A stretch of 63,721 nt of DNA, counting the filler, from Nemertoderma westbladi (lineage: Eukaryota; Animalia; Xenacoelomorpha), in assembly GCA_032718475.1 (NCBI GenBank). It is 3 parts of 3 records of this genome, joined end to end, with 100 filler letters (N's around TTAATTAATTAA, not from the genome) between each part and the next. Parts side by side here need not be neighbours in the genome. Positions count along the whole stretch, not along the records: positions 1 to 31,848 come from JAUCBJ010005897.1; positions 31,949 to 59,762 come from JAUCBJ010003129.1; 1 more part is not named here. One strand, written 5' to 3'. The notes beneath the pieces were generated by a model, which saw only the letters and a program-made list of their open reading frames with translations, did no database searches and had not been told where the DNA came from. This document shows positions 15,821 through 55,922 of the stretch, in pieces. Positions within the stretch are counted from its first letter, which is position 1; every line of letters starts with the position of its first letter. The position numbers and the translations under genes are program-made.

Positions 15821-15943
15821 TTTCACACGCGATCCTCCTGCGCGCTGTAGTGCAGGTTGTGTTTCACACGGTTTCCTCCTGAGCGCTGTAGTGCAGGTTG
15901 TGTTTCACACGGTTTCCTCCTGAGCGCTGTAGTGCAGGTTGTG
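15821..15943 (-). repeat. 41-bp triplication spanning the Eph stop codon
   Basis: tttcacacggtttcctcctgagcgctgtagtgcaggttgtg occurs three times (HNLHYSAQEETV*). Confidence 0.9.
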
Positions 15944-16181
15944 TTTTATTTGCGCGCGGACTGTTTGAATGGAACTCATTAGTTTCTTCTGATGGCCCAC
16001 CAGACTGACGCCCACGCGGTCCAGGTCAGCAGGCCGCAACCCCACTAGGTGGTGCACGTGAGTGAGTCCCGCTCGGGTGAAGTCGTCATGGTAACGGTTC
16101 ATACCGAGACAAAGCAGCCAATCAGAGACGCTACTCAATGACGTGAGATGATCCGTATTGCTGCCAGAGATATTCCGGTGC
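15905..16181 (-). CDS. Eph: Eph receptor last coding exon: SAM domain and PDZ-binding tail (ETV)
   Basis: SVSDWLLCLGMNRY...VGHQKKLMSSIQ. Acceptor ttttag precedes 16181, and the phase matches the upstream exon. Confidence 0.92.
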
Positions 16182-16279
16182 CTAAAATTAAAAGAAACTA
16201 AAATAACTATCGTATTTACTCGAATAAGAGCCTGTGCGTTTAAGTTTATATATTGCCAATTGGGGCGAATTGCCAACAG

Positions 16280-16436
16280 TTTATTCGAGGGAGGCGTTTA
16301 TTCGAGGGAGGCGTTTATTCGAGGGAGGCGTTTATTCGAGGGAGGCGTTTATTCGAGGAGGGCGTTTATTCGAGGGGGGCGTTTATTCGAGGGAGGCGTT
16401 TATTCGAGGAGGGCGTTTATTCGAGGGGGGCGTTTA
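16280..16436 (+). repeat. 17-bp tandem repeat (~9 copies) of the subterminal motif ggcgtttattcgag
   Basis: Unit ttattcgagggaggcgt. The same motif occurs at the element's right end (18660-18676). Confidence 0.9.
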
Positions 16437-16707
16437 TGTTTATGTTCTAGATTTCCAGCATTTAGAATCTAAATACCCGAATAAAGAATTTTGTTAAATT
16501 CAAGAAAACAAATTAAACAAAAGAAATAATTCAAATAAAACCAATCGATTATCTTTATTACAATGTAGTCTATTACAGTGGTACAACACCCTATAACATC
16601 CTACTACATTTACATTCCGTCTTAGCAATCAGTTACCAGTAACTCTCAACAATGTCAGTCTTAACAATCAGTCAAAACCCATAAATGGCCCTTCATCAGA
16701 TTTACAC

Positions 16708-18143: not shown

Positions 18144-18221
18144 AACATTATCTTGGATTATGATCACATCCGGTGATTCAAGATTTACTTTACTAGTTAT
18201 TATCAATTGAATTTTTAATTA

Positions 18222-19420: not shown

Positions 19421-19572
19421 TGGTAGACCTAAAAATCAACAAGTTTTATGGTTCAATACAACAAATAGCAGTGGCAGTAGTTAAGATAATAAATATATGT
19501 ACCATTTATATCATTTTGGTTTTTTAGCACAAATTAAATATTTGGTATTTTTACTGATTCACTTTTACAAAC

Positions 19573-19760
19573 CTCTGTTTCGCGAGAGTCGATAAACACG
19601 CCGGACTCCGTATAATCTTATCGAGTCGGAGTTTTATCGTCTCGAACTTCGGTCGAAGTACACGATCGTGGTTCCAGCAGTCTAGCATTATCTGGTACAG
19701 AGTGTCGGGGCACTCCATAGGTGGAGGTAACCGGTAACCGTCTTCTACTGCCTTCACAAC
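19573..19760 (-). CDS. Eph: Eph kinase C-terminal exon
   Basis: [29 protein letters not shown] with AG/GT boundaries. Confidence 0.93.
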
Positions 19761-19987: not shown

Positions 19988-20195
19988 AATTGGCCCAATA
20001 AACCTATCCAGATTAGCCCAATAAACTTACATCCTGATTGGCCCAATAAACTCAGATCCTAATTGGCCCAATAAACTTACATCCTGATTGGCCCAATAAA
20101 CTTACATCCTGATTGGCCCAATAAACTCACATCCTAATTGGCCCAATAAACTCACATCCTAATTGGCCCAATAAACTTACATCCTGATTGGCCCA
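19988..20195 (-). repeat. 25-bp donor-spanning array (~8 copies)
   Basis: Unit TGGGCCAATCAGGAT|GTAAGTTTAT equals the exon end plus the 5' splice site. Confidence 0.9.
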
Positions 20196-20330
20196 GTCCC
20201 AGTAGGGCCTTTCCCCATAACTCATTGTCTCCCAGGCCGTTATTCCGTAACTCCATACGTCACTCGATGACGTAAACTTCCGGTAAGCTATCGCTTCCGG
20301 TGCTGTCCACCGCAATGGAACTTTACCGCC
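20181..20330 (-). CDS. Eph: Eph kinase exon (subdomains VIII-IX)
   Basis: [50 protein letters not shown]; cag| acceptor and |gtaag donor. Confidence 0.95.
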
Positions 20331-20538
20331 CTGGTGAGAAAATAATAAAACATTGTGACATTATCATTAAAAATTATACTTGAACTGCATTACAATCTAA
20401 TGTGCTATAATTGTAGGTTATATCTTTATAATGTAATGAAATAAAATAAATTATTATTATTATTAATAATATTAATGGAAAATTTGTGCCTTTGAATGCA
20501 ATCCAGACCTCACTAACAACAATAAATACAAATCCACT

Positions 20539-23500
20539 GTATACTCCTGAGCTACCAGCTGACTAACCTTGGTTGTATACTCCTGAGCTATCAGCTGACT
20601 AACCTTGGTTGTATACTCCTGAGCTATCAGCTGACTAACCTTGGTTGTATACTCCTGAGCTACCAGCTGACTAACCTTGGTTGTATACTCCTGAGCTACC
20701 AGCTGACTAACCTTGGTTGTATACTCCTGAGCTACCAGCTGACTAACCTTGGTTGTATACTCTTGGGCTATCAGCTGACTAACCTTGGTTGAATACTCCT
20801 GAGCTACCAGCTGACTAACCTTGGTTGAATACTCCTGAGCTACCAGCTGACTAACCTTGGTTGTATACTCTTGGGCTATCAGCTGACTAACCTTGGTTGT
20901 ATACTCCTGAGCTACCAGCTGACTAACCTTGGTTGAATACTCCTGAGCTACCAGCTGACTAACCTTGGTTGTATACTCCTAAGCTACCAGCTGACTAACT
21001 TTGGTTGTATACTCCTGAGCTACCAGCTGACTAACCTTGGTTGTATACTCTTGGGCTATCAGCTGACTAACCTTGGTTGTATACTCCTGAGCTACCAGCT
21101 GACTAACCTTGGTTGAATACACCTGAGCTACCAGCTGACTAACCTTGGTTGTATACTCCTGAGCTACCAGCTGACTAACCTTGGTTGTATACTCTTGGGC
21201 TATCAGCTGACTAACCTTGGTTGTATACTCCTGAGCTACCAGCTGACTAACCTTGGTTGTATATTCCTGAGCTACCAGCTGACTAACCTTGGTTGTATAC
21301 TCCTGAGCTACCAGCTGACTAACCTTGGTTGTATACTCCTGAGCTACCAGCTGACTAACCTTGGTTGTATACTCCTGAGCTACCAGCTGACTAACCTTGG
21401 TTGTATACTCCTGAGCTACCAGCAGACTAACCTTGGTTGTATACTCCTGAGCTACCAGCTGACTAACCTTGGTTGTATACTCCTGAGCTACCAGCTGACT
21501 ACTACTAGGATCGGCATGCTGCATTGCAGCTGCATTTTTAAGAATGCTGTGCCGGCTTGTCAACAAAATTGCACCGCCACAACTCCCTATCACCCATGAC
21601 ATTTGCTAGATCATCCGCATCTTTAAGGCCAGTGTCCTTTAAGATGCGTCTCAAGAAAGTCATGGGCTGTCCACCGCACTGGCTGGTCCTCACGGCGAAA
21701 GCAATGTCCTGCAAAGCGGAGGCGATTTTGTTCTAGTGTCAAGCTTGGGGGAACCAATGAGACACCTCCAATGTTATATAGTGTCTGGTTGGAGATGTGT
21801 GCATTGTACTTGACACAATGTACCCGGCGTAGCATTCTTGTGAATGTGCCATCCAGAGATTTGGTGTCCTCAGCAGTTAGAGCCCAGCATGGACTCCCGT
21901 AGAGGAGTACTGGAACTACTGCTGCTCTAAATAATCGGACCTTAAGTTTCCGATTAATTCTAGGTGACTTCCAAATCCTGGAAAGCCTATTCAAGGCTGC
22001 CCATGCCTTTCCCTTACGTATTCGAAGGTCCTCACCTGACTTCCGGATCCATGATCCCAGGTAACAGAAGTCGTCCACATGCTCAAGCATACCATCCTTT
22101 GAGCTTATGCTCATCCGATCAGAGACTTGCTGAGGACTTTCAAAGTTAACTGTCAGAATTTTGGTCTTTCTGGAGTTAATAAAAAGACCAACACTAGAAG
22201 CAGCATGTTCTAATGAGCTGAGGAGCCGCTGGGCTCCCTCTAATGATTCTGAGAGTACTCCTAAGTCATCAGCAAAGTCTAGATCAGTTAGGTACTTGGC
22301 AGGATTTCCTCGACTTCTGGAGCCAGTAGCTGGAGTTATCATCACCCCATCATCATTATGATGATCTAAGGACATGCGTAGAACATAGTCAACCACAATA
22401 ATGAACAAGAATGGTGCAAGTGTGTCTCCTTGGAGGACGCCCCATAACACTTCAAATGGTTCTGTGTCACCGTCAACAGTAGACACAAATGTTGTCGAAC
22501 CATCGTATACTGATCTGATTGCTGCAATAATTTCATCAGGAATCCCATATAATGAAAGTATGCTGAACATACGTGAGCGAGAGACTGAATCAAAGGCCTT
22601 GAAGAAGTCAACAAAGATAACAGCCAGATGCCTGTCTTTCTTTTTTGATAACTCTTCAATTATCCTTCTAAGTGCCAAAATGGGCTCCATGGTCCCACGA
22701 CCTTTACGGAACCCATTCTGATTTCCACGTAGCAGTCTCTCAATGGGATCCCTGATGCGATTTAATAGAATTCTATTGTATAGTTTTGCAGCAATCGAGA
22801 TCAATGAGATTCCCCGAAAAGAACCATAGAGTGTTAGGTTGCCCTACCAGCTGACTAACCTTGGTTGTATGCTCCTGAGCTACCAGCTGACTAACCTTGG
22901 TTGTATACTCCTGAGCTACCAGCTGACTAACCTTGGTTGTATACTCCTGAGCTACCAGCAGACTAACCTTGGTTGTATACTCCTGAGCTACCAGCTGACT
23001 AACCTTGGTTGTATACTCCTGAGCTACCAGCTGACTAACCTTGGTTGTATACTCCTAAGCTACCAGCTGACTAACCTTGGTTGTATACTCCTGAGCTACC
23101 AGCTGACTAACCTTGGTTGTATACTCCTGAGCTACCAGCTGACTAACCTTGGTTGTATACTCCTGAGCTACCAGCTGACTAACCTTGGTTGTATGCTCCT
23201 GGGCTACCAGCTGACTAACCTTGGTTGTATACTCCTGAGCTACCAGCTGACTAACCTTGGTTGTATACTCCTGAGCTACCATCTGACTAACCTTGGTTGT
23301 ATACTCCTGAGCTACCAGCTGACTAACCTTGGTTGTATACTCTTGAGCTACCAGCTGACTAACCTTGGTTGTATACTCCTGAGCTACCAGCTGACTAACC
23401 TTGGTTGTATACTCCTGAGCTACCAGCTGACTAACCTTGGTTGTATACTCCTGAGCTACCAGCTGACTAACCTTGGTTGTATACTCCTGGGCTACCAGCT

Positions 23501-23604
23501 GACTAACCTTGGTTGTATACTCCTGGGCTACCAGCAGACTAACCTTGGTTGTATACTCCTGAGCTACCAGCTGACTAACCTTGGTTGTATACTCCTGGGC
23601 TACC
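20539..23604 (-). repeat. 36-bp in-frame donor-spanning array (~48 copies, interrupted by an RTE)
   Basis: Unit CTGGTAGCTCAGGAGTATACAACCAAG|GTTAGTCAG (LVAQEYTTK|VSQ). Confidence 0.95.
21502..22843 (-). mobile_element. 5'-truncated RTE-clade LINE, RT domain open for 393 aa, (TAG)n tail
   Basis: QNGFRKGR, FVDFFKAFD, GVLQGDTLAP, DFADD and YLGS motifs. ~13-bp TSD taccagctgacta on both sides. Confidence 0.95.
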
Positions 23605-23789
23605 ATATCTTCTAGCGCACGACTCAACCCAAAATCCGCGACTTTACAGACGAGACACTCGTTCACTAATATATTCCGAGCAGCCAGATCTCTGTGAACG
23701 TATCCGATATCAGAGAGGTATTGCATACCGTAGGAAATTCCTCGCAACATTCCAACCAGTTGAATCGCTGTAAATCCCCCATCATTTGC
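23580..23789 (-). CDS. Eph: Eph kinase exon (HRD, DFG, activation loop)
   Basis: [13 protein letters not shown]...[22 protein letters not shown] joins GGKVPLRW of the next exon, matching the Eph YTTxGGK motif. Confidence 0.95.
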
Positions 23790-24949: not shown

Positions 24950-25218
24950 CCGGAGGAATTGATCTAAAGACCCATTCTCCATATACTCTGTTACTATCAT
25001 TACGGGTTGGCATTTAGTAACGACCCCCTCCAGATGAATGACATTGGCGTGGTGGAACTGCCCCATAATGCTGGCCTCCAACAGAAAGTCTCGCAGATTT
25101 TTATCCGAAGAACCGACTTTTAGAGTTTTCAGGGCGATTTTTTTGGTCACGGATTTGGTCGTGTCGAATATGTGGTCGCCGGTAGTAAATGAACCCCGAT
25201 AGACGTCGCCGAATTCAC
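24950..25218 (-). CDS. Eph: Eph kinase N-lobe exon
   Basis: GEFGDVYRG...IALKTLK...[24 protein letters not shown]...[13 protein letters not shown]. Confidence 0.95.
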
Positions 25219-25403
25219 CTTAAATATAAACATAAAATAAAAATGAGAGATGTAAGAGAAAGATAGTAAAATTACTTTATTTCAACTTAATATATTCGCG
25301 TATCACTTTATATCATTGGTATCACATTCATATTGTTTGTCTGAGCTATTTTGCAATGATATTCCATGACAGTATAACAGGGCGCTAATCTGCCCTATAA
25401 GGG

Positions 25404-28400
25404 GTGCATTCTATAATATTTGTAGGACACTAACAGCACCTATGGTGCATTCTATAATATTTGTAGGACACTAACCTGCACCTATTGTGCTCTCTATAAT
25501 ACTTGTAGGACACAAACCAGCACCTATGGTGCTCTCTATAATATTTGTAGGAAACAAACCAGCACCTATGGTGCTCTCTATAATACTTGTAGGACACAAA
25601 CCAGCACCTATGGTGCTCTCTATAATACTTGTAGGACACAAACCAGCACCTATGGTGCTCTCTATAATACTTGTAGGACACAAACCAGCACCTATGGTGC
25701 TCTCTATAATACTTGTAGGACACAAACCAGCACCTATGGTGCTCTCTATAATACTTGTAGGACACAAACCAGCACCTATGGTGCTCTCTATAATACTTGT
25801 AGGACACAAACCAGCACCTATGGTGCTCTCTATAATACTTGTAGGACACAAACCAGCACCTATGGTGCTCTCTATAATATTTGTAGGAAACAAACCAGCA
25901 CCTATGGTGCTCTCTATAATACTTGTAGGACACAAACCAGCACCTATGGTGCTCTCTATAATACTTGTAGGACACAAACCAGCACCTATGGTGCTCTCTA
26001 TAATACTTGTAGGACACAAACCAGCACCTATGGTGCTCTCTATAATACTTGTAGGACACAAACCAGCACCTATGGTGCTCTCTATAATACTTGTAGGACA
26101 CAAACCAGCACCTATGGTGCTCTCTATAATACTTGTAGGACACAAACCAGCACCTATGGTGCTCTCTATAATACTTGTAGGACACAAACCAGCACCTATG
26201 GTGCTCTCTATAATACTTGTAGGACACAAACCAGCACCTATGGTGCTCTCTATAATATTTGTAGGAAACAAACCAGCACCTATGGTGCTCTCTATAATAC
26301 TTGTAGGACACAAACCAGCACCTATGGTGCTCTCTATAATACTTGTAGGACACAAACCAGCACCTATGGTGCTCTCTATAATACTTGTAGGACACAAACC
26401 AGCACCTATGGTGCTCTCTATAATACTTGTAGGACACAAACCAGCACCTATGGTGCTCTCTATAATACTTGTAGGACACAAACCAGCACCTATGGTGCTC
26501 TCTATAATATTTGTAGGACACAAACCAGCACCTATGGTGCACTCTATAATACTTGTAGGACACAAACCAGCACCTATGGTGCTCTCTATAATACTTGTAG
26601 GACACAAACCTGCATCTATGGTGCTCTCTATAATACTTGTAGGACACAAACCAGCACCTATGGTGCTCTCTATAATACTTGTAGGACACAAACCAGCACC
26701 TATGGTGCTCTCTATAATACTTGTAGGACACAAACCAGCACCTATGGTGCTCTCTATAATACTTGTAGGACACAAACCAGCACCTATGGTGCTCTCTATA
26801 ATACTTGTAGGACACAAACCTGCACCTATGGTGCTCTCTATAATACTTGTAGGACACAAACCAGCACCTATGGTGCTCTCTATAATACTTGTAGGACACA
26901 AACCAGCACCTATGGTGCTCTCTATAATACTTGTAGGACACAAACCAGCACCTATGGTGCTCTCTATAATACTTGTAGGACACAAACCAGCACCTATGGT
27001 GCTCTCTATAATACTTGTAGGACACAAACCTGCACCTATGGTGCTCTCTATAATATTTGTAGGACACTAACCAGCACCTATGGTGCTCTCTATAATACTT
27101 GTAGGACACAAACCAGCACCTATGGTGCTCTCTATAATATTTGTAGGACACAAACCAGCACCTATGGTGCTCTCTATAATACTTGTAGGACACAAACCAG
27201 CACCTATGGTGCTCTCTATAATACTTGTAGGACACAAACCAGCACCTATGGTGCTCTCTATAATACTTGTAGGACACAAACCAGCACCTATGGTGCTCTC
27301 TATAATACTTGTAGGACACAAACCAGCACCTATGGTGCTCTCTATAATACTTGTAGGACACAAACCAGCACCTATGGTGCTCTCTATAATATTTGTAGGA
27401 CACAAACCAGCACCTATGGTGCACTCTATAATACTTGTAGGACACAAACCAGCACCTATGGTGCTCTCTATAATACTTGTAGGACACAAACCAGCACCTA
27501 TGGTGCTCTCTATAATACTTGTAGGACACAAACCTGCATCTATGGTGCTCTCTATAATATTTGTAGGACACTAACCTGCACCTATGGTGCTATCTATAAT
27601 ATTTGTAGGACACAAACCAGCACCTATGGTGCTCTCTATAATATTTGTAGGAAACAAACCAGCACCTATGGTGCTCTCTATAATACTTGTAGGACACAAA
27701 CCAGCACCTATGGTGCTCTCTATAATACTTGTAGGACACAAACCAGCACCTATGGTGCTCTCTATAATACTTGTAGGACACAAACCTGCATCTATGGTGC
27801 TCTCTATAATACTTGTAGGACACAAACCAGCACCTATGGTGCTCTCTATAATACTTGTAGGACACAAACCTGCACCTATGGTGCTCTCTATAATACTTGT
27901 AGGACACAAACCAGCACCTATGGTGCTCTCTATAATACTTGTAGGACACTAACAGCACCTATGGTGCACTCTATAATATTTGTAGGACACTAACAGCACC
28001 TATGGTGCACTCTATAACACTTATAGGACACAAACCAGCACTTATGGTGCACTCTATAATATTTGTAGGACAGAAACCAGCACCTATGGTGCACTCTATA
28101 ATATTTGTAGGACACTAACAGCACCTATGGTGCACTCTATAACACTTATAGGACACAAACCAGCACTTATGGTGCACTCTATAATATTTGTAGGACACAA
28201 ACCAGCACCTATGGTGCTCTCTATAATACTTGTAGGACACAAACCAGCACCTATGGTGCTCTCTATAATACTTGTAGGACACAAACCAGCACCTATGGTG
28301 CACTCTATAACACTTATAGGACACAAACCAGCACTTATGGTGCACTCTATAATATTTGTAGGACACAAACCAGCACCTATGGTGCACTCTATAATACTTG

Positions 28401-30562
28401 TAGGACACAAACCAGCACTTATGGTGCACTCTATAATATTTGTAGGACACAAACCGGCACCTATGGTGCACTCTATAATATTTGTAGGACACAAACCAGC
28501 ACCTATGGTGCTCTCTATAATACTTGTAGGACACAAACCAGCACCTATGGCGCAATACACAAGGCACAGAAAGAGTCCCGACTCAAACAGACTACAGCGG
28601 CCAAGAATGCAGTTAAGGCTGCATCTAGGTCCCTGAACATGCAGTACTCTGTTAATCTACAGGAGCTAATAAACCAACAGGTTGATGCCATCAATGATGC
28701 TGACGACAGCAGGCAATCATCCCAGGCATGGAAATCGATCAACTTGCTTACTGGGCGGAAAAGCCAACCAACCACCAAGGTTAAGGCTGAATCACCAGCC
28801 AATCGCCTCAATGGTTGGAAGGCCCACTTTGAAAAGCTCCTCAATAATGACAGGGTATTGCCTGATAACTTTATAGAAGTAAAAGTGTCTGAGTCTGTAC
28901 TCCCAGATATTCCCATTGGTGATATCTCCTTTGCAGAAGTGAAGGATGTTGCAAAGAGCATTAAGACCAATCGTGCCAGTGGAGTAGATGGTGTTCCCCC
29001 TGAGGTCTTTAAAATACCTGAGTGTTTAAAGCTCATCTATCCCATCATAGTAGACATGTACCGAACAACAAGAGTCCCACAAGAAATGAAAACAAATAAG
29101 TTGGTGCCAGTTCCCAAGAAGGGCAACCTAACACTCTATGGTTCTTTTCGGGGAATCTCATTGATCTCGATTGCTGCAAAGCTATACAATAGATTCTATT
29201 AAATCGCATCAGGGATCCCATTGAGAGACTGCTCCGTGGAAATCAGAATGGGTTCCGTAAAGGTCGTGGGACCATGGAGCCCATATTGGCATTTAGAAGG
29301 ATAATTGAAGAATTATCAAAAAAGAAAGACAGGCATCTGGCTGTTATCTTTGTTGACTTTTTCAAGGCCTTTGATTCAGTCTCTCGCTCACGTATGTTCA
29401 GCATACTTTCATTATATGGGATTCCTGATGAAATTATTGCAGCAATCAGATCAGTATACGATGGTTCGACAACATTTGTGTCTACTGTTGACGGTGACAC
29501 AGAACCATTTGAAGTGTTATGGGGTGTCCTCCAGGGAGACACACTGGCACCATTCTTGTTCATAATTGTTGTTGACTATGTTCTACGCATGTCCTTAGAT
29601 CATCATAATGATGATGGGGTGATGATAACTCCACCTACTGGCTCCAGAAGTCGAGGAAAGCCTGCCAATTACCTAACTGATCTAGACTTTGCTGATGACT
29701 TAGGAGTACACTCAGAATCACTAGAGGAGCCCAACGGCTCCTCAGCTCATTCGAACATGCTGCTTCTAGTGTTGGTCTTTTTATTAACTCCAGAAAGACC
29801 AAAATTTTGACAGTTAACTAGTCCTCAGAAAGACTCTGATTTCTGTTACCTGGGATCATGGATCCGGAAGTCAGGTGAGGACCTTGGAATACGTAAGGGA
29901 AAGGCATGGGCAGCCTTGAATAGGCTTTCCAGGATTTGGAAGTCACCGAGAATTAATCGGAAACTTAAGGTCCGATTATTTAGAGCAGCTGTAGTTCCAG
30001 TACTCCTCTATGGGAGTCCATGCTGGGCTCTAACTGCTGAGGACACCAAATCTCTGGATGGCACATTCACAAGAATGCTACGCCGGGTTCATTGTGTCAA
30101 GTACAATGCACACATCTCCAACCAGACAATATATAACATTGGAGGTGTCTCATTGGTTCCCCCAAGCTTGACACTAGAACAAAATCGCCTCCGCTTTGCA
30201 GGACATTGCTTTCGCCGTGAGGACCAGTCAGTGCTTAATCTTGTACTTTGGCAGCCTCATGGAGTGAATAAGCATGGTGGACAGCCCATGACTTTCTTGA
30301 GACGCATCTTAAAGGACACTGCCCTTGAAGATGCGGATGATCTAGCGAATATCATGGGTGATAGGGAGTTGTGGTGGTGCAATTTTGTCGATAAGCCGGC
30401 ACAGCATTCTTAAAAATGCAGCTGCAATGCAGCATGCCGATCCTAGTAGTATGGCGCAATCTATACACTTATCGATTGTAGGACACAAACCAGCACCTAT
30501 GGTGCTCTCGATAAAAACTTGTGGATTTTAGGACACTTACCTGCACCTATGGTGCACTCTAT
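25404..30562 (-). repeat. 42-bp donor-derived array (~75 copies at 25404-28556, plus 2-3 copies at 30460-30562)
   Basis: Unit ATAGAGAGCACCATAGGTGCTG|GTTTGTGTCCTACAAGTATT versus the true junction ATAGAGTGCACCATAGGTGCAG|GTAAGTGTCCTAA. Confidence 0.95.
28557..30449 (+). mobile_element. 5'-truncated, frameshifted RTE LINE (same family as 21502-22843)
   Basis: RT split over ORFs starting at 28639, 29274 and 29916. Tail cctagtagt. TSD tatggcgcaat at 28546-28556 and 30450-30460. Confidence 0.95.
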
Positions 30563-30669
30563 CTTTATATTTTTAACATCGAGTTCGGTCGCGAACTCCT
30601 TTACAGCTTGTCCAGGATCCTCGTAATTGCTCGGATCAACGTACGGTCTGAGTCCCATAGGAAACTTAA
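30541..30669 (-). CDS. Eph: Eph juxtamembrane exon
   Basis: Manual translation gives LRPYVDPSNYEDPGQAVKEFATELDVKNIKIECTIGAG, the Eph YxDPxxYEDP motif. Confidence 0.95.
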
Positions 30670-30929
30670 CTAAATAAACAAATATAAATAAATTAAATAG
30701 TTTAATAACTAGTACATTTTATTGGAAACATAAATACTAATAAATTTCTAAACGAATATATTTGCTTAGCATATTGAACACGTAATTTTAATCATTAGAG
30801 GTATGGGAAAGTTGTCAAAAATTTGTTAAGCCTCAATAACCTATAATTTCCTGAATTTCGGTAAAATCGTGTAAAGAAGACCTTAAAGAAGTAACTGTTT
30901 CTTTACTCGAAGTCAATACAATACCTAAC

Positions 30930-31112
30930 CTTCTCCATTCGAATAACCCAGCATAAGTTTCCTTTCATCCGACATGGTTTTATAACCTTTCCGTTTCTTG
31001 AAGACGACAACAATAATAACAACAACAATAACCAGTAGTACGATTAGAGCAATCACGGATACTATGATTATAACTCGCTGATTGGCTGGCGCCATTAACG
31101 GCGGGTTTAGTT
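30930..31112 (-). CDS. Eph: Eph transmembrane exon
   Basis: Manual translation gives VIIIVSVIALIVLLVIVVVIIVVVF-KKRK; phase 1 at both ends. Confidence 0.88.
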
Positions 31113-31214
31113 CTAGAATATAATAAATAAGTTGAATAACCAGTTGTAACTCAATTAAAAAATAAATTTCGTCAAAAATTGTAAAATTAAATATCTTTAT
31201 ATCTTAGAGAGGGT

Positions 31215-31400
31215 GAACTCATTCCATCACGCAGTGGGCCTGATAGTCCCTGGTTCAATCCTGGTTCCCGTCAGATACAATGTGGCGCCCATACAACGTT
31301 AAGGAAACCTGGTTTCTGCTGGTGGGAGTAGTATGTAAAGCATTGTAAAGTAAGTGTAATCAACATTGGGAGTTAAAGTGGCACTCTGACTACAGTTTTG
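31215..31400 (+). mobile_element. Probable SINE fragment
   Basis: B-box-like GGTTCAATCC followed by a SINE-like body. Confidence 0.35.
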
Positions 31401-31462
31401 TTGATACCTCTGTTGGTTGGTGGTGTGATTCACGTTCACCGACGACTCGGACACTAACTAAC

Positions 31463-31744
31463 CGGATTCCTGCGTCGACACAATACGACTGAACCTCCCG
31501 AATGAACCGCCCTGGACGTCCACCGCCACTTGGAACCCATACTGCGACTCGGTTTCGAGGTCCGTTAGTGTAATAGTCGTTGCGTTCGTGTGTCTGTCCG
31601 AGTAAATATTCTTCCCCAAAGACTGTCGGACAATCCGGACGGTGTAACCGACAATCTCGACGCCATCAGTGTCGGGTGGGGCGTCCCACGCCAAGGAGAC
31701 ACTACCGAGAGTGTGGTTGACGATTCGGAGATTGTTTACAGCGA
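31463..31744 (-). CDS. Eph: Eph fibronectin type III exon (gene 5' end lies beyond the contig)
   Basis: SVSLAWDAPP...GYTV...LTDLETESQYGFQVAV FN3 pattern with AG/GT boundaries. Confidence 0.88.
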
Positions 31745-31948: not shown

Positions 31949-32000
31949 TACCTTCATCTGTTCGCTCTTTACCTTCAGTAATTATCACTTTACAACATAC

Positions 32001-32132
32001 CTTCATCTGCTCTCTCTTTAGTTTTTCTCTTTTCCTTATAAGTTCCACCAACAACCTGGATCTCTCTAAATCCTGTCGCAACCGTTTCCAGAATCTCAGC
32101 TGACTGCGATGAGCGCTCTGTTCGGCAGTTTC
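32001..32132 (-). CDS. BRPF1: BRPF-family exon (EPC-II helix)
   Basis: [31 protein letters not shown]. Confidence 0.92.
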
Positions 32133-32507
32133 CTAGGGGATAAGGAAAATATATCAAATAAAATAAATTATGCTTCTACCGTTACGGAACTATCTCCAGT
32201 TGGGACTAATGTTCATAAATTTAGGATGTTATAAGTTGGGAAGCTCGCCCAATCGTTATTGTATATATAAATATTTTTTAACTTTTATCCGAAATTAGAT
32301 TTTACTTATACCTTGAGGGTTAGGTCAGTTACTGGTGTTTTACTATGTGTTCCTTCGGGTGCGGTAGCACGGTCCTACGTAGTAAATGTTAGATCTAACT
32401 TTCAACTTGGTTATGATTTTCGATCCTTAGTATTCTGTACAATTTTAGTTAAATTTCGCATTGCGATCGATTGATTAGATGGTCCAGAGAGATTGAATTT
32501 AACTTAC

Positions 32508-32664
32508 AGCCTGGGTTGCGCGACTGTTTCCGTGACTCGTTTGGAGCCGACGCAATAAGGGCACGCCGTTCCGTGATTGGCGTTTCAGTAACCAATAAGC
32601 TTGCAATCTCGCCATAAACAAGTCCTTCTTCTGCAGCGTACACCCAATCAAGATCTTTCTGATC
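32508..32664 (-). CDS. BRPF1: BRPF-family exon
   Basis: Manual translation gives [23 protein letters not shown]. Confidence 0.92.
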
Positions 32665-33082
32665 CTAATTAAAAATTACACTTTGTTACATTAAGTGAAA
32701 TTATCAGCGCGGTGAAGTAAAGCTAGTAAAGCTGACCACTTTGTGGCCTTCTAGAACATGTCACAATGTCTAGAGATGTATTTTAAAATATTAAAGAGAT
32801 AAATTTTAAGCGTTTAGAACGCCGATAAATTATTGACATAATGTAAAAAAAATATCTAGACTATTTCTGAAAAATCGTTCACCATTCAGCGTTCAAGACC
32901 CTCGTTTACTTTTATGTAAACATCCATCGCTATGCTCATTCGGTACATAAAATATGTACACCTGGGTTATAACAATCAGTACTACTTCACACACTATTAT
33001 ATACATAGTAATTCATAAGTCATCAGGGAGAAAAATAAAATTAACAATTACTTTACACTAATTTACAACAAAAAAAACTAAC

Positions 33083-33296
33083 TTGGTTGGAGGAATAAAT
33101 GGAATGGATACAACAGGAACCATGGATCGTTTCTCCGCCAATGTTCGTCTCGCTTGTCTCATTTGTTTACGTTTCTCCTCGGTTACTATGATACCATCGT
33201 TGGTAGAATCGATGATTGGTCGTGAAACCGACCCAGCCGGAGTATGGAGGTCGCAGTAAGCTGTCTTTCTAACAGCGACGCTGCAACCATTACCGT
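33083..33296 (-). CDS. BRPF1: BRPF-family exon (end of PHD2)
   Basis: Manual translation gives VRKTAYCDLHTP...ARRTLAEKRSMVPVVSIPFIPP. Confidence 0.92.
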
Positions 33297-41151: not shown

Positions 41152-41198
41152 GTTAGCGCTACTGATAAGGCCTGATAGGCTGAAACGTATAGCGCAAC
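41152..41198 (+). ncRNA. Minimal type I hammerhead-ribozyme-like motif (core variant), Penelope-type
   Basis: GCGCTA-CTGATAA-GGCCT gat AGGCT-GAAA-CG-TA-TAGCGC: stems I and II pair. The core has A at the conserved G8 position. Confidence 0.55.
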
Positions 41199-46069: not shown

Positions 46070-46261
46070 CGCTCTCCCGTACGGGCTCCATCTTCATGTG
46101 TAAGTCGGCCTGTTGGGCGCAAGTTACGTGGAAGGCTGTGTAGCAGTTGGCTTTGTGGCACTGGATGCACGCCCCTATTCCTCGTTGCCGGCAAATATAG
46201 CAGTTCAGTTTCCATCGGGCAGGAGGAATTGCTTTAATGCTGTCCACTGGTTCTAGAAACA
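46070..46261 (-). CDS. BRPF1: BRPF-family exon (PHD2 of the PZP domain)
   Basis: [52 protein letters not shown]. Confidence 0.95.
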
Positions 46262-48483
46262 CTGTAAGTAAAGGGAATTGCTTTAATGCTGTCCACTGGT
46301 TCTAGAAACCCTGTAAGTAAAGGGAATTGCTTTAATGCTTCCACTGGTTCTAGAAACACTGTAAGTAAAGGGAATTGCTTTAATGCTGTCCACTGGTTCT
46401 AGAAACACTGTAAGTAAAGGGAATTGCTTTAATGCTGTCCACTGGTTCTAGAAACACTGTAAGTAAAGGGAATTGCTTTAATGCTGTCCACTGGTTCTAG
46501 AAACACTGTAAGTAAAGGGAATTGCTTTAATGCTGTCCACTGGTTCTAGAAACACTGAAAGTAAAGGGAATTGCTTTAATGCTGTCCACTGGTTCTAGAA
46601 ACACTGTAAGTAAAGGGAATTGCTTTAATGCTGACCACTGGTTCTAGAAACACTGTAAGTAAAGGGAATTGCTTTAATGCTGTCCCCTGGTTCTAGAAAC
46701 ACTGAAAGTAAAGGGAATTGCTTTAATGCTGTCCACTGGTTCTAAAAACACTGTAAGTAAAGGGAATTGCTTTAATGCTGTCCACTGGTTCTAGAAACAC
46801 TGTAAGTAAAGGGAATTGCTTTAATGCTGTCCACTGGTTCTAGAAACACTGAAAGTAAAGGGAATTGCTTTAATGCTGTCCACTGGTTCTAGAAACACTG
46901 TAAGTAAAGGTAATTGCTTTAATGCTGTCCACTGGTTCTAGAAACACTGAAAGTAAAGGGAATTGCTTTAATGCTGTCCACTAGTTCTAGAAACACTGTA
47001 AGTAAAGGGAATTGCTTTAATGCTGTCCACTGGTTCTAGAAACACTGTAAGTAAAGGGAATTGCTTTAATGCTGTCCACTGGTTCTAGAAACACTGAAAG
47101 TAAAGGGAATTGCTTTAATGCTGTCCACTGGTTCTAGAAACACTGTAAGTAAAGGGAATTGCTTTCATGCTGTCCACTGGTTCTAGAAACACTGTAAGTA
47201 AAGGGAATTGCTTTAATGCTGTCCTGGTCCAATGGTTCTAGAAACACTGCAAGTAAAGGGAATTGCTGTAATGCTGTCCACTGGTTCTAGAAACACTGTA
47301 AGTAAAGGGAATTGCTTTAATGCTATCCACTGGTTCTAGAAACACTGTAAGTAAAGGGAATTGCTTTAATGCTGTCCTGGTCCAATGGTTCTAGAAACAC
47401 TGCAAGTAAAGGGAATTGCTGTAATGCTGTCCACTGGTTCTAGAAACACTGTAAGTAAAGGGAATTGCTTTAATGCTGTCCCCTGGTTCTAGAAACACTG
47501 AAAGTAAAGGGAATTGCTTTAATGCTGTCCACTGGTTCTAGAAACACTGTAAGTAAAGGGAATTGCTTTAATGCTGTCCACTGGTTCTAGAAACACTGTA
47601 AGTAAAGGGAATTGCTTTAATGCTGTCCACTGGTTCTAGAAACACTGAAAGTAAAGGGAATTGCTTTAATGCTGTCCACTGGTTCTAGAAACACTGTAAG
47701 TAAAGGTAATTGCTTTAATGCTGTCCACTGGTTCTAGAAACACTGAAAGTAAAGGGAATTGCTTTAATGCTGTCCACTAGTTCTAGAAACACTGTAAGTA
47801 AAGGGAATTGCTTTAATGCTGTCCACTGGTTCTAGAAACACTGTAAGTAAAGGGAATTGCTTTAATGCTGTCCACTGGTTCTAGAAACACTGAAAGTAAA
47901 GGGAATTGCTTTAATGCTGTCCACTGGTTCTAGAAACACTGTAAGTAAAGAGAATTGCTTTAATACTGTCCACTGGTTCTAGAAACACTGTAAGTAAAGG
48001 GAATTACTTTAATGCTGTCCACTGGTTCTAGAAACACTGTAAGTAAAGGGAATTACTTTAATGCTGTCCACTGGTTCTAGAAACACTGTAAGTAAAGGGA
48101 ATTGCTTTAATGCTGTCCACTAGTTCTAGAAACACTGTAAGTAAAGGGAATTGCTTTAATGCTGTCCACTGGTTCTAGAAACCCTGTAAGTAAAGGGAAT
48201 TGCTTTAATGCTGTCCACTGGTTCTAGAAACACTGTAAGTAAAGGGAATTGCTTTAATGCTGTGCACTGGTTCTAGAAACACTGTAAGTAAAGGGAATTG
48301 CTTTAATGCTGTCCACTGGTTCTAGAAACACTGTAAGTAAAGGGAATTGCTTTAATGCTGTCCACTGGTTCTAGAAACACTGTAAGTAAAGGGAATTGCT
48401 TTAATGCTGTCCTGGTCCAATGGTTCTAGAAACACTGTAAGTAAAGGGAATTGCTTTAATGCTGTCCACTGGTTTCAGAAACA
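46225..48483 (-). repeat. 49-bp acceptor-spanning array (~46 copies)
   Basis: Unit ctttacttacag|TGTTTCTAGAACCAGTGGACAGCATTAAAGCAATTCC equals the 3' splice site plus the first 37 nt of the exon. Confidence 0.95.
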
Positions 48484-48571
48484 CCAGTCCGTTGTAAATT
48501 ACGAGTTTATGTCAAGAGTTCATGTGTACGAGTTAATATGACGCGTACGATAAACAAATCTGACGTCATTA

Positions 48572-48781
<210 letters not shown>

Positions 48782-49080: not shown

Positions 49081-50182
49081 GCACATTACACAACTCCCTA
49101 CAACTCACTTGATGTACTGCCAGGTTACACAACTCCCTATAACTCACTTGATGTACTGCCAGGTTACACAACTCCCTCAACTCACTTGATGTACTGGCAC
49201 CTTACACAATTCCCTACAACTCACTTGATGTACTGCCAGGTTACACAACTCCCTACAACTCACTTGATGTACTGCCAGGTTACACAACTCCCTACAACTC
49301 ACTTGATGTACTGCCAGGTTACACAACTCCCTACAACTCACTTGATGTACTGCCAGGTTACACAACTCCCTACAACTCACTTGATGTACTGCCAGGTTAC
49401 ACAACTCCCTACAACTCACTTGATGTACTGCCAGGTTACACAACTCCCTACAACTCACTTGATGTACTGCCAGGTTACACAACTCCCTACAACTCACTTG
49501 ATGTACTGCCAGGTTACACAACTCCCTACAACTCACTTGATGTACTGCCAGGTTACACAACTCCCTACAACTCACTTGATGTACTGCCAGGTTACACAAC
49601 TCCCTACAACTCACTTGATGTACTGCCAGGTTACACAACTCCCTACAACTCACTTGATGTACTGCCAGGTTACACAACTCCCTACAACTCACTTGATGTA
49701 CTGCCAGGTTACACAACTCCCTACAACTCACTTGATGTACTGCCAGGTTACACAACTCCCTACAACTCACTTGATGTACTGCCAGGTTACACAACTCCCT
49801 ACAACTCACTTGATGTACTGCCAGGTTACACAACTCCCTACAACTCACTTGATGTACTGCCAGGTTACACAACTCCCTACAACTCACTTGATGTACTGCC
49901 AGGTTACACAACTCCCTACAACTCACTTGATGTACTGCCAGGTTACACAACTCCCTACAACTCACTTGATGTACTGCCAGGTTACACAACTCCCTACAAC
50001 TCACTTGATGTACTGCCAGGTTACACAACTCCCTACAACTCACTTGATGTACTGCCAGGTTACACAACTCCCTACAACTCACTTGATGTACTGCCAGGTT
50101 ACACAACTCCCTACAACTCACTTGATGTACTGCCAGGTTACACAACTCCCTACAACTCACTTGATGTACTGCCAGGTTACAC
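49081..50182 (-). repeat. 39-bp in-frame donor-spanning array (~28 copies)
   Basis: Unit TGTAACCTGGCAGTACATCAA|GTGAGTTGTAGGGAGTTG (CNLAVHQ|VSCREL). Confidence 0.95.
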
Positions 50183-50330
50183 ATGTCGCAGAACAGAATT
50201 ACGTTGCTGTTTGCGCACTCCCCGTCGTTGCATATAGCACAAACTGCGTCTTCGTCTATAACAGATTGCTCGGCTTTACCGTTGGTACAAAACTCAAAGT
50301 AAGATTCCTTCTCGAGGCGGTCCATCAATC
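50161..50330 (-). CDS. BRPF1: BRPF-family exon (EPC-I end and PHD1 start)
   Basis: [12 protein letters not shown]...[32 protein letters not shown]. Confidence 0.95.
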
Positions 50331-50647
50331 CTAAAAGATATGGATAATCAGTTGCAAACATCATCAGTCTCTCTCACCCACATTACATAAACTCCAGAAG
50401 CCCTACAACACCTCGGAACAACGTACGTAGACTCAGCAATACAATCAGTAAACCGTATAATAATCATTCATCATTATCATACTTTACAATTGTTGTTGAA
50501 ACACTAAATCCGAAGAATAAATACAATATTTATTTATAATCAATAACAGTAATACCGTAAGCAGAATTAACACTGAACCTCATTATACCCAAACAGCCAC
50601 AGTACACTAATTATCTCACTAGCAACTTAATAAATAATAATTCTAAC

Positions 50648-50750
50648 CTTCAAATAAATCCTGACTAACTAATGACAGTTTATTTTCTTGTCGTTCCTCG
50701 TTCATCATCTCCAACCAGGCGTGGTCCTCCTCGTCCATATCATATTCAAC
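50648..50750 (-). CDS. BRPF1: BRPF-family exon (EPC-I)
   Basis: Manual translation gives VEYDMDEEDHAWLEMMNEERQENKLSLVSQDLFE. Confidence 0.92.
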
Positions 50751-53700
50751 CTAACGTAGTAATAACAATATATTCAACCTAACGTAGTAATAACAATATA
50801 TTCAACCTAACGTAGTAATAACAATATATTCAACCAAACGTATTAATATCAATATATTCAACCTAACGTATTAATAACAATATATTCAACCTAACGTAGT
50901 AATAACAATATATTCAACCTAACGTATTCATAACAATATATTCAACCTAACGTATTAATAACAATATATTCAACCTAACGTATTCATAACAATATATTCA
51001 ACCTAACGTATTAATAACAATATATTCAACCTAACGTAGTAATAACAATATATTCAACCTAACGTATTAATAACAATATATTCAACCTAACGTATTAATA
51101 ACAATATATTCAACCTAACGTAGTAATAACAATATATTCAACCTAACGTATTAATAACAATATATTCAACCTAACGTAGTAATAACAATATATTCAACCT
51201 AACGTATTAATAACAATATATTCAACCTAACGTAGTAATAACAATATATTCAACCTAACGTATTAATAACAATATATTCAACCTAACGTATTCATAACAA
51301 TATATTCAACCTAACGTATTAATAACAATATATTCAACCTAACGTAGTAATATCAATATATTCAACCTAACGTATTAATAACAATATATTCAACCTAACG
51401 TAGTAATATCAATATATTCAACCTAACGTATTAATATCAATATATTCAACCTAACGTAGTAATATCAATATATTCAACCTAACGTATTAATATCAATATA
51501 TTCAACCTAACGTATTCATAACAATATATTCAACCTAACGTATTAATAACAATATATTCAACCTAACGTATTAATAACAATATATTCAACCTAACGTATT
51601 AATAACAATATATTCAACCTAACATATTAATAACAATATATTCAACCTAACGTATTAATAACAATATATTCAACCTAACGTATTAATAACAATATATTCA
51701 ACCTAACGTAGTAATAACAATATATTCAACCTAACGTATTAATAACAATATATTCAACCTAACATATTAATAACAATATATTCAACCTAACGTAGTAATA
51801 TCAATATATTCAACCTAACGTATTAATATCAATATATTCAACCTAACGTATTAATAACAATATATTCAACCTAACGTATTAATAACAATATATTCAACCT
51901 AACGTATTAATATCAATATATTCAACCTAACGTATTAATAACAATATATTCAACCTAACGTAGTAATAACAATATATTCAACCTAACGTATTAATAACAA
52001 TATATTCAACCTAACGTATTAATAACAATATATTCAACCTAACGTAGTAATAACAATATATTCAACCTAACGTATTAATAACAATATATTCAACCTAACG
52101 TATTAATAACAATATATTCAACCTAACGTATTAATAACAATATATTCAACCTAACGTATTAATAACAATATATTCAACCTAACATATTAATAACAATATA
52201 TTCAACCTAACGTATTAATAACAATATATTCAACCTAACGTATTAATAACAATATATTCAACCTAACGTATTAATAACAATATATTCAACCTAACGTATT
52301 AATAACAATATATTCAACCTAACGTATTAATAACAATATATTCAACCTAACGTAGTAATAACAATATATTCAACCTAACGTATTAATAACAATATATTCA
52401 ACCTAACGTAGTAATATCAATATATTCAACCTAACGTATTAATATCAATATATTCAACCTAACGTATTAATAACAATATATTCAACCTAACGTATTAATA
52501 ACAATATATTCAACCTAACGTATTAATAACAATATATTCAACCTAACGTATTAATATCAATATATTCAACCTAACGTATTAATATCAATATATTCAACCT
52601 AACGTAGTAATATCAATATATTCAACCTAACGTATTAATATCAATATATTCAACCTAACATATTAATAACAATATATTCAACCTAACGTATTAATAACAA
52701 TATATTCAACCTAACGTAGTAATATCAATATATTCAACCTAACGTATTAATATCAATATATTCAACCTAACGTATTAATAACAATATATTCAACCTAACG
52801 TATTAATAACAATATATTCAACCTAACGTATTAATAACAATATATTCAACCTAACGTAGTAATAACAATATATTCAACCTAACGTATTAATAACAATATA
52901 TTCAACCTAACATATTAATAACAATATATTCAACCTAACGTAGTAATAACAATATATTCAACCTAACGTAGTAATAACAATATATTCAACCTAACGTAGT
53001 AATAACAATATATTCAACCTAACGTAGTAATAACAATATATTCAACCAAACGTAGTAATAACAACATATTCAACCTAACGTAGTAATAACAATATATTCA
53101 ACCTAACGTAGTAATAACAATATATTCAACCTAACGTAGTAATAACAATATATTCAACCTAACGTAGTAATAACAATATATTCAACCTAACATATTAATA
53201 ACAATATATTCAACCTAACGTATTAATAACAATATATTCAACCTAACATATTAATAACAATATATTCAACCTAACGTAGTAATAACAATATATTCAACCT
53301 AACGTAGTAATAACAATATATTCAACCTAACGTAGTAATAACAATATATTCAACCTAACGTATTAATAACAATATATTCAACCTAACATATTAATAACAA
53401 TATATTCAACCTAACATATTAATAACAATATATTCAACCTAACGTAGTAATAACAATATATTCAACCTAACGTAGTAATAACAATATATTCAACCTAACG
53501 TATTAATAACAATATATTCAACCTAACGTATTAATAACAATATATTCAACCTAACGTATTAATAACAATATATTCAACCTAACGTAGTAATAACAATATA
53601 TTCAACCTAACGTAGTAATAACAATATATTCAACCTAACGTAGTAATAACAATATATTCAACCTAACGTAGTAATAACAATATATTCAACCTAACGTAGT

Positions 53701-55922
53701 AATAACAATATATTCAACCTAACGTATTAATAACAATATATTCAACCTAACGTATTAATAACAATATATTCAACCTAACGTATTAATAACAATATATTCA
53801 ACCTAACGTATTAATAACAATATATTCAACCTAACATATTAATAACAATATATTCAACCTAACGTATTAATAACAATATATTCAACCTAACGTAGTAATA
53901 TCAATATATTCAACCTAACGTATTAATATCAATATATTCAACCTAACGTATTAATATCAATATATTCAACCTAACGTATTAATAACAATATATTCAACCT
54001 AACGTATTAATAACAATATATTCAACCTAACGTATTAATAACAATATATTCAACCTAACGTAGTAATAACAATATATTCAACCTAACGTATTAATAACAA
54101 TATATTCAACCTAACATATTAATAACAATATATTCAACCTAACGTAGTAATAACAATATATTCAACCTAACGTAGTAATAACAATATATTCAACCTAACA
54201 TATTAATAACAATATATTCAACCTAACATATTAATAACAATATATTCAACCTAACGTAGTAATAACAATATAATCAACCTAACGTAGTAATAACAATATA
54301 TTCAACCTAACGTAGTAATAACAATATATTCAACCTAACGTAGTAATAACAATATATTCAACCTAACGTAGTAATAACAATATATTCAACCTAACGTAGT
54401 AATAACAATATATTCAACCTAACATATTAATAACAATATATTCAACCTAACGTATTAATAACAATATATTCAACCTAACGTAGTAATAACAATATATTCA
54501 ACCTAACATATTAATAACAATATATTCAACCTAACGTATTAATAACAATATATTCAACCTAACGTATTAATAACAATATATTCAACCTAACGTATTAATA
54601 ACAATATATTCAACCTAACGTATTAATAACAATATATTCAACCTAACGTATTAATAACAATATATTCAACCTAACGTATTAATAACAATATATTCAACCT
54701 AACGTAGTAATAACAATATATTCAACCTAACGTAGTAATAACAATATATTCAACCTAACGTAGTAATAACAATATATTCAACCTAACGTAGTAATAACAA
54801 TATATTCAACCTAACGTAGTAATAACAATATATTCAACCTAACATATTAATAACAATATATTCAACCTAACGTATTAATAACAATATATTCAACCTAACG
54901 TAGTAATAACAATATATTCAACCTAACGTAGTAATAACAATATATTCAACCTAACGTAGTAATAACAATATATTCAACCTAACGTATTAATAACAATATA
55001 TTCAACCTAACGTATTAATATCAATATATTCAACCTAACGTATTAATAACAATATATTCAACCTAACGTATTAATAACAATATATTCAACCTAACGTATT
55101 AATAACAATATATTCAACCTAACGTATTAATAACAATATATTCAACCTAACGTAGTAATAACAATATATTCAACCTAACGTATTAATAACAATATATTCA
55201 ACCTAACGTAGTAATAACAATATATTCAACCTAACGTATTAATAACAATATATTCAACCTAACGTATTAATAACAATATATTCAACCTAACGTAGTAATA
55301 ACAATATATTCAACCTAACGTATTAATAACAATATATTCAACCTAACGTATTCATAACAATATATTCAACCTAACGTATTAATAACAATATATTCAACCT
55401 AACGTATTCATAACAATATATTCAACCTAACGTATTAATAACAATATATTCAACCTAACGTATTAATAACAATATATTCAACCTAACGTAGTAATAACAA
55501 TATATTCAACCTAACGTATTAATAACAATATATTCAACCTAACGTATTCATAACAATATATTCAACCTAACGTATTAATAACAATATATTCAACCTAACG
55601 TATTCATAACAATATATTCAACCTAACGTATTAATAACAATATATTCAACCTAACGTATTAATAACAATATATTCAACCTAACGTATTAATAACAATATA
55701 TTCAACCTAACGTATTCATAACAATATATTCAACCTAACGTATTAATAACAATATATTCAACCTAACGTATTAATAACAATATATTCAACCTAACGTATT
55801 AATAACAATATATTCAACCTAACGTATTAATAACAATATATTCAACCTAACGTATTAATAACAATATATTCAACCTAACGTATTAATAACAATATATTCA
55901 ACCTAACGTAGTAATAACAATA
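50743..55922 (-). repeat. 28-bp acceptor-spanning satellite (~185 copies, 5.2 kb)
   Basis: Unit tattgttatta(c/a)tacgttag|GTTGAATA equals the 3' splice site plus the first 8 nt of the VEYDMD exon. Confidence 0.95.

Follow-up and report, generated by a model that had tools for sequence, protein, structure and literature searches.

Splice-junction minisatellites in two genes of Nemertoderma westbladi: unusually dense arrays of the mirage kind

Six mutually unrelated minisatellites, with units of 25-49 bp in 8-185 copies, straddle splice sites of an Eph gene and a BRPF1 gene of Nemertoderma westbladi and occupy 6 of 14 complete introns. They are of a known kind, the 'mirage' minisatellites, and are unusually dense. 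With a probability of roughly 0.55, we hold that six independent border-spanning duplications have expanded into the intron, that they were probably born by slippage with a bias to coding edges, and that they are tolerated.

MATERIALS AND METHODS

The window, 63,721 nt long, consists of three contigs joined by N linkers. The Eph gene lies on JAUCBJ010005897.1 (1-31,848) and the BRPF1 gene on JAUCBJ010003129.1 (31,949-59,762). An initial annotation had called the two genes unlinked; they do lie on separate contigs, but contig separation by itself does not make them so. DNA runs X2 and X3 come from one sample and study, distinct from X1, a possible source of the assembly. Run X4 is labelled 'DNA?' yet behaves as a spliced transcript, and it supplied the spliced contigs. 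The bias test covers the window alone, with two genes and hand-drawn masks, and is post hoc, the window having been picked once the pattern was seen.

RESULTS

Gene models of Eph and BRPF1

Exon models built with the exon-proximal copies give open frames in both genes, as the initial annotation had expected of the copies that yield the conserved protein, and individual exons match EphA4 in the Eph gene and peregrin/BRPF1 in the BRPF1 gene. Its count of about 15 introns becomes 14 complete introns and one truncated by the contig end, with 31 splice sites across both genes. A 63-nt exon candidate (32374-32312) is skipped by the spliced contig, carries a 39-nt deletion in another sample and was left out of all counts. 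The exons are as follows.

15906..16181, minus strand: last coding exon of Eph, SAM domain and C-terminus (open frame and SAM domain match)
19573..19760, minus strand: Eph kinase exon 7, of 8 exons in the window (open frame)
20181..20330, minus strand: Eph kinase exon 6
23580..23789, minus strand: Eph kinase exon 5
24950..25218, minus strand: Eph kinase exon 4
30541..31744, minus strand: Eph exons 1-3 in the window (31744-31463, 31112-30930, 30669-30541)
32001..33296, minus strand: BRPF1 exons 6-8 in the window (33296-33083, 32664-32508, 32132-32001; spliced contig of X4 and frame)
46070..46261, minus strand: BRPF1 exon 5, PHD-like zinc finger
48592..48781, minus strand: BRPF1 exon 4
50161..50750, minus strand: BRPF1 exons 2 and 3 (50750-50648, 50330-50161; spliced contig of X4)
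59090..59226, minus strand: BRPF1 exon 1 in the window; the spliced contig connects it to 50750

Position and anatomy of the arrays

On re-measurement, all six arrays have the places, units and copy numbers first assigned to them. At 6 of the 31 splice sites, the repeated unit combines exon and intron sequence of one boundary, head-to-tail. Extra copies of a junction-centred 20-mer occur at exactly these many sites (6/31), and every copy is on the intron side; all six arrays thus extend into the intron, as had been proposed. The authentic splice site sits in the terminal unit and the surplus copies are intronic, judging by the frames that stay open with the proximal site. The arrays, and the retroelements that interrupt two of them, are listed here.

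19989..20195, minus strand: Eph, 25-bp x 8.4 donor array; ~15 exon and ~10 intron nt per unit; real donor after 20181
20538..23605, minus strand: Eph, 36-bp donor array; ~26 exon and ~10 intron nt; real donor after 23580
21502..22843, minus strand: 5'-truncated reverse-transcriptase element (RVT_1) inside the 36-bp array, with a 12-bp target-site duplication
25403..28550, minus strand: 42-bp x 75 array from the Eph exon-3 donor; ~22 exon and ~20 intron nt; donors weakened
28551..30450, plus strand: second retroelement copy of the same family (90.6% identical), with a 10-bp target-site duplication
30451..30562, minus strand: diverged exon-proximal units of the 42-bp array; real donor after 30541
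46225..48484, minus strand: BRPF1, 49-bp x 45.8 acceptor array; 13 intron and 36 exon nt; real acceptor before 46261
49086..50183, minus strand: BRPF1, 39-bp x 28.2 donor array; ~23 exon and ~16 intron nt; real donor after 50161
50742..55924, minus strand: BRPF1, 28-bp x 185.1 acceptor array; 19 intron and 9 exon nt; real acceptor before 50750

The RVT_1 element divides the 36-bp array into blocks of 26.8 copies (20538-21501) and 21.2 copies (22844-23605), ~48 in total, while the second retroelement opens a 1.9-kb gap between Eph exon 3 and the core of the 42-bp array. Nine unit variants follow a patterned order in the 28-bp array. Its unit reads TAG/GTT, an AG/GT arrangement of the type that a recursive-splicing ratchet would use for intermediate steps, but with a weak donor half. 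Its GC content is only ~22%; consequently, GC content alone is not the driver of array formation. The exon share of the units spans 9-36 nt. By eye, the intron-side end of the array falls within exon-derived sequence in 4 of 6 cases, the pattern predicted by erosion of that end with the exon end fixed in place. The ends overlap, again by eye, by 7 nt in the 39-bp array, 5 nt in the 41-bp stop-codon repeat described below and ~3 nt in the 28-bp array; such overlaps would fit microhomology-mediated tandem duplication, but those of 9-37 nt at 4 of 6 arrays are not a clean microhomology signature.

The splice site opposite each array has no copy inside it, and every arrayed intron retains 120-530 nt of unrelated host sequence. 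The arrays have therefore enlarged existing introns and did not create them. Intron gain by tandem duplication, in which both splice sites derive from the unit, was rejected on the same grounds.

Repeats other than the six arrays

Two further duplications lie at coding boundaries.

15819..15946, minus strand: Eph stop codon, spanned by a triplication (41-bp x 3.1) that takes in 39 coding nt and part of the stop; 5-nt end overlap
31949..32023, minus strand: the BRPF1 exon-8 donor recurs once, 49 nt downstream and at the contig edge

The triplication, already recognized in the initial annotation, marks a coding edge that has no splice site, at the only stop codon present for the two genes. A probable seventh array had been placed at 31949; there is just the second donor copy, and at 31949-31995 none of the DNA runs X1, X2 and X3 shows a depth spike. 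The DNA contigs of all three runs stop 27-30 nt beyond this edge, which is compatible with some repeat and shows none.

Outside transposon-like inserts, the remaining complex arrays fall within open frames; their unit lengths, 27 and 54 bp, are both divisible by three. The host-like non-coding DNA of both genes (~9 kb) yields only two low-copy repeats; with low-complexity rows filtered out, one two-copy duplication is intron-interior and one is at a junction. Transposon-like inserts in the introns of the arrayed genes also carry arrays, with units of 72, 71, 43 and 17 bp. POLQ, a neighbouring gene in the stretch, is on a different contig, and its 2.7-kb exon holds no array; it was discarded as a candidate cause, being on that other contig and lacking a demonstrated link.

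Junction bias within the window

Depending on the null, 6 of 8 or 6 of 13 arrays lie on junctions, compared to 0.70 or 0.48 expected (P = 9.4e-6 and 2.7e-6). The claim that junctions are seeded beyond chance thus stands in this window at P ~1e-5, post hoc. We compared the supply of microhomology, counting pairs per 1000 seeds at 5 nt, and found 1.28 at junctions vs 2.70 in intron interiors. Junction seeds are the poorer, and microhomology supply was rejected as the cause of the bias: simple slippage followed by purging predicts fewer arrays at junctions, not more. The rarity of two-copy duplications in intron interiors likewise weakens an account in which many are born and few are kept.

Decoy sites and splice-site use

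Across the six arrays, 376 decoys keep their GT or AG (72 + 46 + 5 + 27 + 44 + 182). Hundreds of decoy sites had been claimed, and these are found; 166 of them are identical to the real motif. None of the 72 GT-bearing copies in the 42-bp array has the real donor 9-mer, and 61 of them read CTG/GTTTGT vs the real CAG/GTAAGT. The frame would stay open at decoys 1-14 of the 36-bp array and at 25 of 27 in the 39-bp array. The AG is kept in 44 decoys of the 49-bp array and 182 of the 28-bp array, and an open frame in none of either.

In one spliced contig from X4, with loose ends, 50161 is connected to exon 4, and exon 1 runs on into 50750. It uses the exon-proximal donor among 28 in the 39-bp array and the exon-proximal acceptor among 183 in the 28-bp array, so that the authentic site is seen in use at 2 of 6 arrays, in a contig where minor forms are invisible. 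The DNA upstream of the real 28-bp acceptor is array sequence common to dozens of decoys, and the choice must consequently be made on the exon side. The X4 contig begins 4 nt before the exon at 46261, in letters common to exon 4 and the intron end; the choice among the 49-bp acceptors is therefore not readable from it.

Arrays in an independent sample

Units of the 39-bp and 28-bp arrays occur at many times single-copy depth in both X2 and X3, and the intron-side boundary of the 39-bp array is identical in that sample. These two of the six arrays are thus present in other DNA runs, and an assembly artefact, which the initial annotation had proposed to check for, is largely refuted for them. 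The core-to-flank depth of the 39-bp array is ~82 in X1 and ~28 in X3, and the assembly has 24-25 exact 31-mers; depth is not equal to copy number.

DISCUSSION

Canestro et al. are said to have reported mirages in 2002 in lancelet Adh3, with unit lengths of 10-72 bp. The arrangement had been presented to us as undescribed in the sense of a genome-wide system; lancelet mirages (PMC3087553, PMC3902484) and human VNTRs (PMC1557585) precede it. In the passages cited here, mirages are described in lancelet Adh3 and the globins BflGb6 and BflGb9 (PMC3087553) and in PGBD5 and troponin C (PMC3902484), and are proposed to be general in cephalochordates (both papers). As in N. westbladi, the lancelet units span exon and intron, occur at 5' and 3' boundaries, vary in length and leave splicing normal. 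The globin mirages have 3-6 units, whereas ours reach 185 copies and 5.2 kb. Our arrays also differ in belonging to another animal lineage, for which the POLQ hits included no close relative, in affecting 6 of 14 introns in two genes, in the estimated excess over chance and in the stop codon that is affected as well.

Boundary-spanning VNTRs have also been described in five human genes: F7 IVS7 (37 bp x 5-9), 6-16, CBS IVS13, lamin B2 and PDGF (PMC1557585). There the first unit contains the real donor, identical pseudo-donors follow and the most upstream donor is used, as here. According to the same passages, the human genes have one array each, on donors only, in contrast to several per gene in N. 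westbladi, where the two acceptor arrays also need the last of 45 or 183 sites to be chosen. The Rogers model of intron gain by tandem duplication holds that boundary repeats increase the number of splice signals and might give rise to new introns (PMC2812944, in part); unlike that case, the introns here keep unrelated DNA and a separate opposite splice site. PMC10078293 relates repeat length to splicing level, and the passages concerned do not treat junction-spanning units. In the literature searched, mostly outside subscription journals, we found no genome-wide test of junction enrichment.

We propose that the step from one to two copies would occur between short direct repeats, by slippage of the microhomology type, and that slippage or unequal exchange would later expand the array. 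Copies inside a conserved exon would be purged, while edge-straddling copies would leave one exon intact and push the remainder into non-coding DNA. The arrays are probably tolerated because the exon-proximal site keeps being used, as seen at 2 of 6 arrays in one spliced contig. An array anchored in an exon cannot be wholly deleted from both sides, which may help it to persist. The excess over intron interiors may stem from a higher rate of birth or expansion in or beside coding DNA, and the splice site would then be a marker of the coding edge and not the cause. Microhomology-mediated tandem duplications resemble our arrays in the short direct repeats at three array ends, and purifying selection depletes them from coding regions (PMC13167724, passages cited). 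Microhomology supply fails to predict the bias seen here, and the words intron, exon and splice are absent from the main text of that paper as available. Favouring coding edges leaves the size of the junction bias unaccounted for, and just one event is seen at a stop codon.

A mutational process aimed at splice sites themselves, in which breaks at spliceosome assembly, nicks or R-loops are repaired by duplication and seed arrays, was suggested at the outset; we consider it unlikely. The junction excess agrees with it, as do a microhomology supply that points the opposite way, the involvement of both donors and acceptors and the additional donor present in two copies at 31949; how mirages form is also called unclear (PMC3087553, in the passages cited). 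Yet no spliceosome is required for the triplication at the stop codon or for the in-frame arrays in coding DNA, and an exon part of 9-36 nt implies that breaks would not fall at a constant distance from the junction. Having no splice site, the triplication, a single case, may point to coding edges in general rather than to the spliceosome. It is rather improbable that the genome is merely rich in minisatellites, with this window a tail case and a genome-wide junction share near the value of a neutral sieve. The window was picked after the pattern was noticed, with hand-drawn masks and two genes only, and transposon-like inserts carry arrays too; against this stand P ~1e-5 under both nulls and three arrays per gene on separate contigs.

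Selection for regulatory arrays has little to recommend it, whether decoys tune expression by unproductive splicing or supply the kinase activation loop and PHD finger with in-frame repeats. The frames left open by decoys of the 36-bp and 39-bp arrays would permit it, and splicing of human 6-16 and CBS does use the closest pseudo-sites (PMC1557585, in part). However, no unit is related to another, retroelements interrupt two of the arrays, one lacks the donor motif, and array depth ratios vary between runs; in the single spliced contig the real sites are the ones in use, with the proviso that rare forms are lost from contigs. That the arrays are assembly artefacts is very improbable: exact copy numbers are unconfirmed and the cross-run comparison covers 2 of 6 arrays, but those two recur at many-fold depth in X2 and X3, with a matching 39-bp boundary, and both the nine patterned variants of the 28-bp array and the target-site duplications at the retroelement insertions speak against an artefact.

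Arrays of this sort cause short-read assemblies to break at the edges of exons and lead gene predictors astray. Mirages have been reported from individual genes since 2002, with an origin called unclear (PMC3087553, in part), and in a genome with 6 of 14 mirage introns a preference for splice sites, for coding edges or for neither could be counted for the first time. In the 28-bp array, acceptor choice is put to a sharp natural test. We advance only tentatively, as somewhat doubtful, a genome-wide bias that seeds duplications at exon borders tens of times over the rest of introns, gives a large share of introns satellites of their own splice site and is the same process as in lancelet mirages. 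If this were true, the competition among identical donors and acceptors, hundreds of them, would make N. westbladi a natural test bed.

Gene models and other elements of the window

Three contigs (positions 1-31848, 31949-59762 and 59863-63721), with N linkers between them, make up the window. Eight exons of an Eph receptor gene lie in the window on the minus strand, running from a fibronectin domain to a SAM domain, and one of the kinase exons matches EphA4 (E 7e-28). Eight exons of BRPF1 are also on the minus strand, with exon 4 matching peregrin (E 1e-41); a ninth exon of the initial model was discarded on RNA evidence, and the two genes then total 31 splice sites and 14 complete introns. 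Insert-free introns are AT-rich and 260-420 nt long, suggesting a compact invertebrate genome. The window holds these further elements:

2-1747, minus: a frame that stays open for at least 582 codons and encodes an 18-residue repeat (54 bp x 7.4); none of the Pfam families reaches its cut-off
5278-10702: 3.3 repeats of a 1623-bp unit (96%), each containing part of a retroelement that matches 19145-19281 at 98-99% identity
16205-18690: insert in Eph intron 7 with inverted ends of 20 nt, holding AGAC-type repeats, a 17-bp array and a 72-bp x 20 array that has an acidic reading frame
21502-22843 and 28551-30450: two members of one reverse-transcriptase element family (90.6% identity), each inserted within an Eph junction array (target-site duplications of 12 and 10 bp)
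32327-32365: 39 nt of the window haplotype that are deleted in sample S2, which also has several small indels in BRPF1 introns
33371-44603: three copies of a gene with many LDL-receptor class A repeats, all nested within BRPF1 intron 5; two stand in tandem on the plus strand (98.7% identical) and the third is inverted (92-95%), and each contains 4-5 copies of a 27-bp repeat that keeps the frame
56340-58991: BRPF1 intron 1 insert of fold-back-like structure, in which long inverted GGGAA-rich arms flank a 71-bp x 8 array
61018-63720, minus: POLQ (DNA polymerase theta), at least 900 codons including the polymerase domain in a single uninterrupted frame

In vertebrate POLQ, the same part is divided among many exons. 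The best matches to POLQ are just 39-45% identical and scattered across a nemertean, vertebrates, lancelets and echinoderms, so that no near relative appears among the matches listed (best 120 of 812).

Junction arrays and their decoy splice sites

Tandem Repeats Finder recovered all six arrays that the initial annotation had described. We counted copies of a 20-mer centred on each of the 31 splice sites, with no more than 4 mismatches and over a range of 9 kb, and found additional copies at six sites: 72, 46 and 6 at three Eph donors, 27 at one BRPF1 donor, and 44 and 184 at two BRPF1 acceptors. At all six they lie on the intron side, as had been proposed, and the predicted hundreds of decoys are present, with 376 retaining GT or AG. 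Of these, 166 match the real motif exactly, none of them in the 42-bp array. Splicing at any of the first 14 decoys in the 36-bp array, or at 25 of the 27 in the 39-bp array, would leave the frame open; every decoy of the other four arrays would cause a frameshift or add a stop.

Spliced contigs identify the copy in use. Run X4, filed as 'DNA?', has contigs that omit introns with CT..AC ends. One runs from exon 1 straight into the final acceptor of the 28-bp array, and from the first donor in the 39-bp array straight into exon 4; another is spliced from the first donor at position 32001. The claim that the exon-proximal copy is used therefore holds for the 28-bp and 39-bp arrays in this run, and for the Eph and 49-bp arrays it is predicted from the reading frame. 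Contigs lose rare forms, so minor decoy use may go unseen.

The locus is present in four runs that share one organism label. We compared depth over 50123-50790, which covers two of the six arrays (39-bp and 28-bp), in X1, the possible assembly source, and in X2 and X3, from one further sample and study. Both units stand many-fold above flank depth in X1 and X2/X3, and the intron-side end of the 39-bp array is identical in all three. The 39-mer core/flank depth is about 82 in X1 and about 28 in X3, against 24-25 exact 31-mers in the assembly; these values hint at length variation, but depth is not copy number. At the suspected seventh array, the BRPF1 exon-8 donor beside the contig edge, the donor is indeed duplicated (a 23-nt match 49 nt downstream), but the DNA runs have no depth spike there, and three DNA contigs end 27-30 nt past the edge; the site is counted as a duplication, with an array there only a candidate.

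Junction bias and the origin of the arrays

For the chance test, each array was reduced to one unit, and the expected count was the frequency at which viable seeds would overlap a junction by 5 nt or more. After transposon-like and nested DNA was masked, 6 of 8 repeats straddle junctions against 0.70 expected (P 9.4e-6); across all intron DNA, 6 of 13 do so against 0.48 (P 2.7e-6). Junction seeding beyond chance is thus borne out inside the window, as a local result, because the masks were hand-drawn and the window was picked post hoc. Slippage and purging alone fail to explain the excess, since microhomology pairs are fewer around junctions than in intron interiors and interior two-copy duplications are few.

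By eye, the ends of three repeats overlap by 7, 5 and about 3 nt, resembling the short overlaps of microhomology-mediated tandem duplication (PMC13167724). Four repeats terminate inside exon-derived sequence, which suggests that the free array end erodes. The most telling additional fact on mechanism concerns the Eph stop codon, which lies under a 41-bp triplication; the spliceosome makes no use of this edge. Apart from those in transposon-like inserts, the other complex arrays have units of 27 and 54 bp and fall within open frames. Because of these two observations, we read coding DNA as the target of duplication. Duplications may arise or expand more easily there, with chromatin, methylation or recombination as candidate reasons; those within conserved exons would be lost, and those at edges would persist and become anchored. 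Targeting of splice sites themselves is a live rival and keeps its standing because the stop-codon triplication is a single instance.

The initial annotation suggested a genome-wide system not known to be described; boundary-spanning repeats are published for lancelet and human genes. Ebner et al. (2010; PMC3087553) report such 'mirages' from the Adh3 and globin genes of lancelets, where they occur at either boundary and leave splicing undisturbed; they treat them as possibly general in cephalochordates, and term their formation mechanism unclear; PGBD5 and troponin C are further cases (PMC3902484). Human F7 is spliced from whichever of its identical donors lies furthest upstream, and four further genes are named (Borensztajn et al. 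2006; PMC1557585). No genome-wide enrichment test of junction repeats was found in the literature searched. The arrays in this Nemertoderma westbladi window are real, match the initial annotation well, and are an unusually dense case of an already known kind of repeat.
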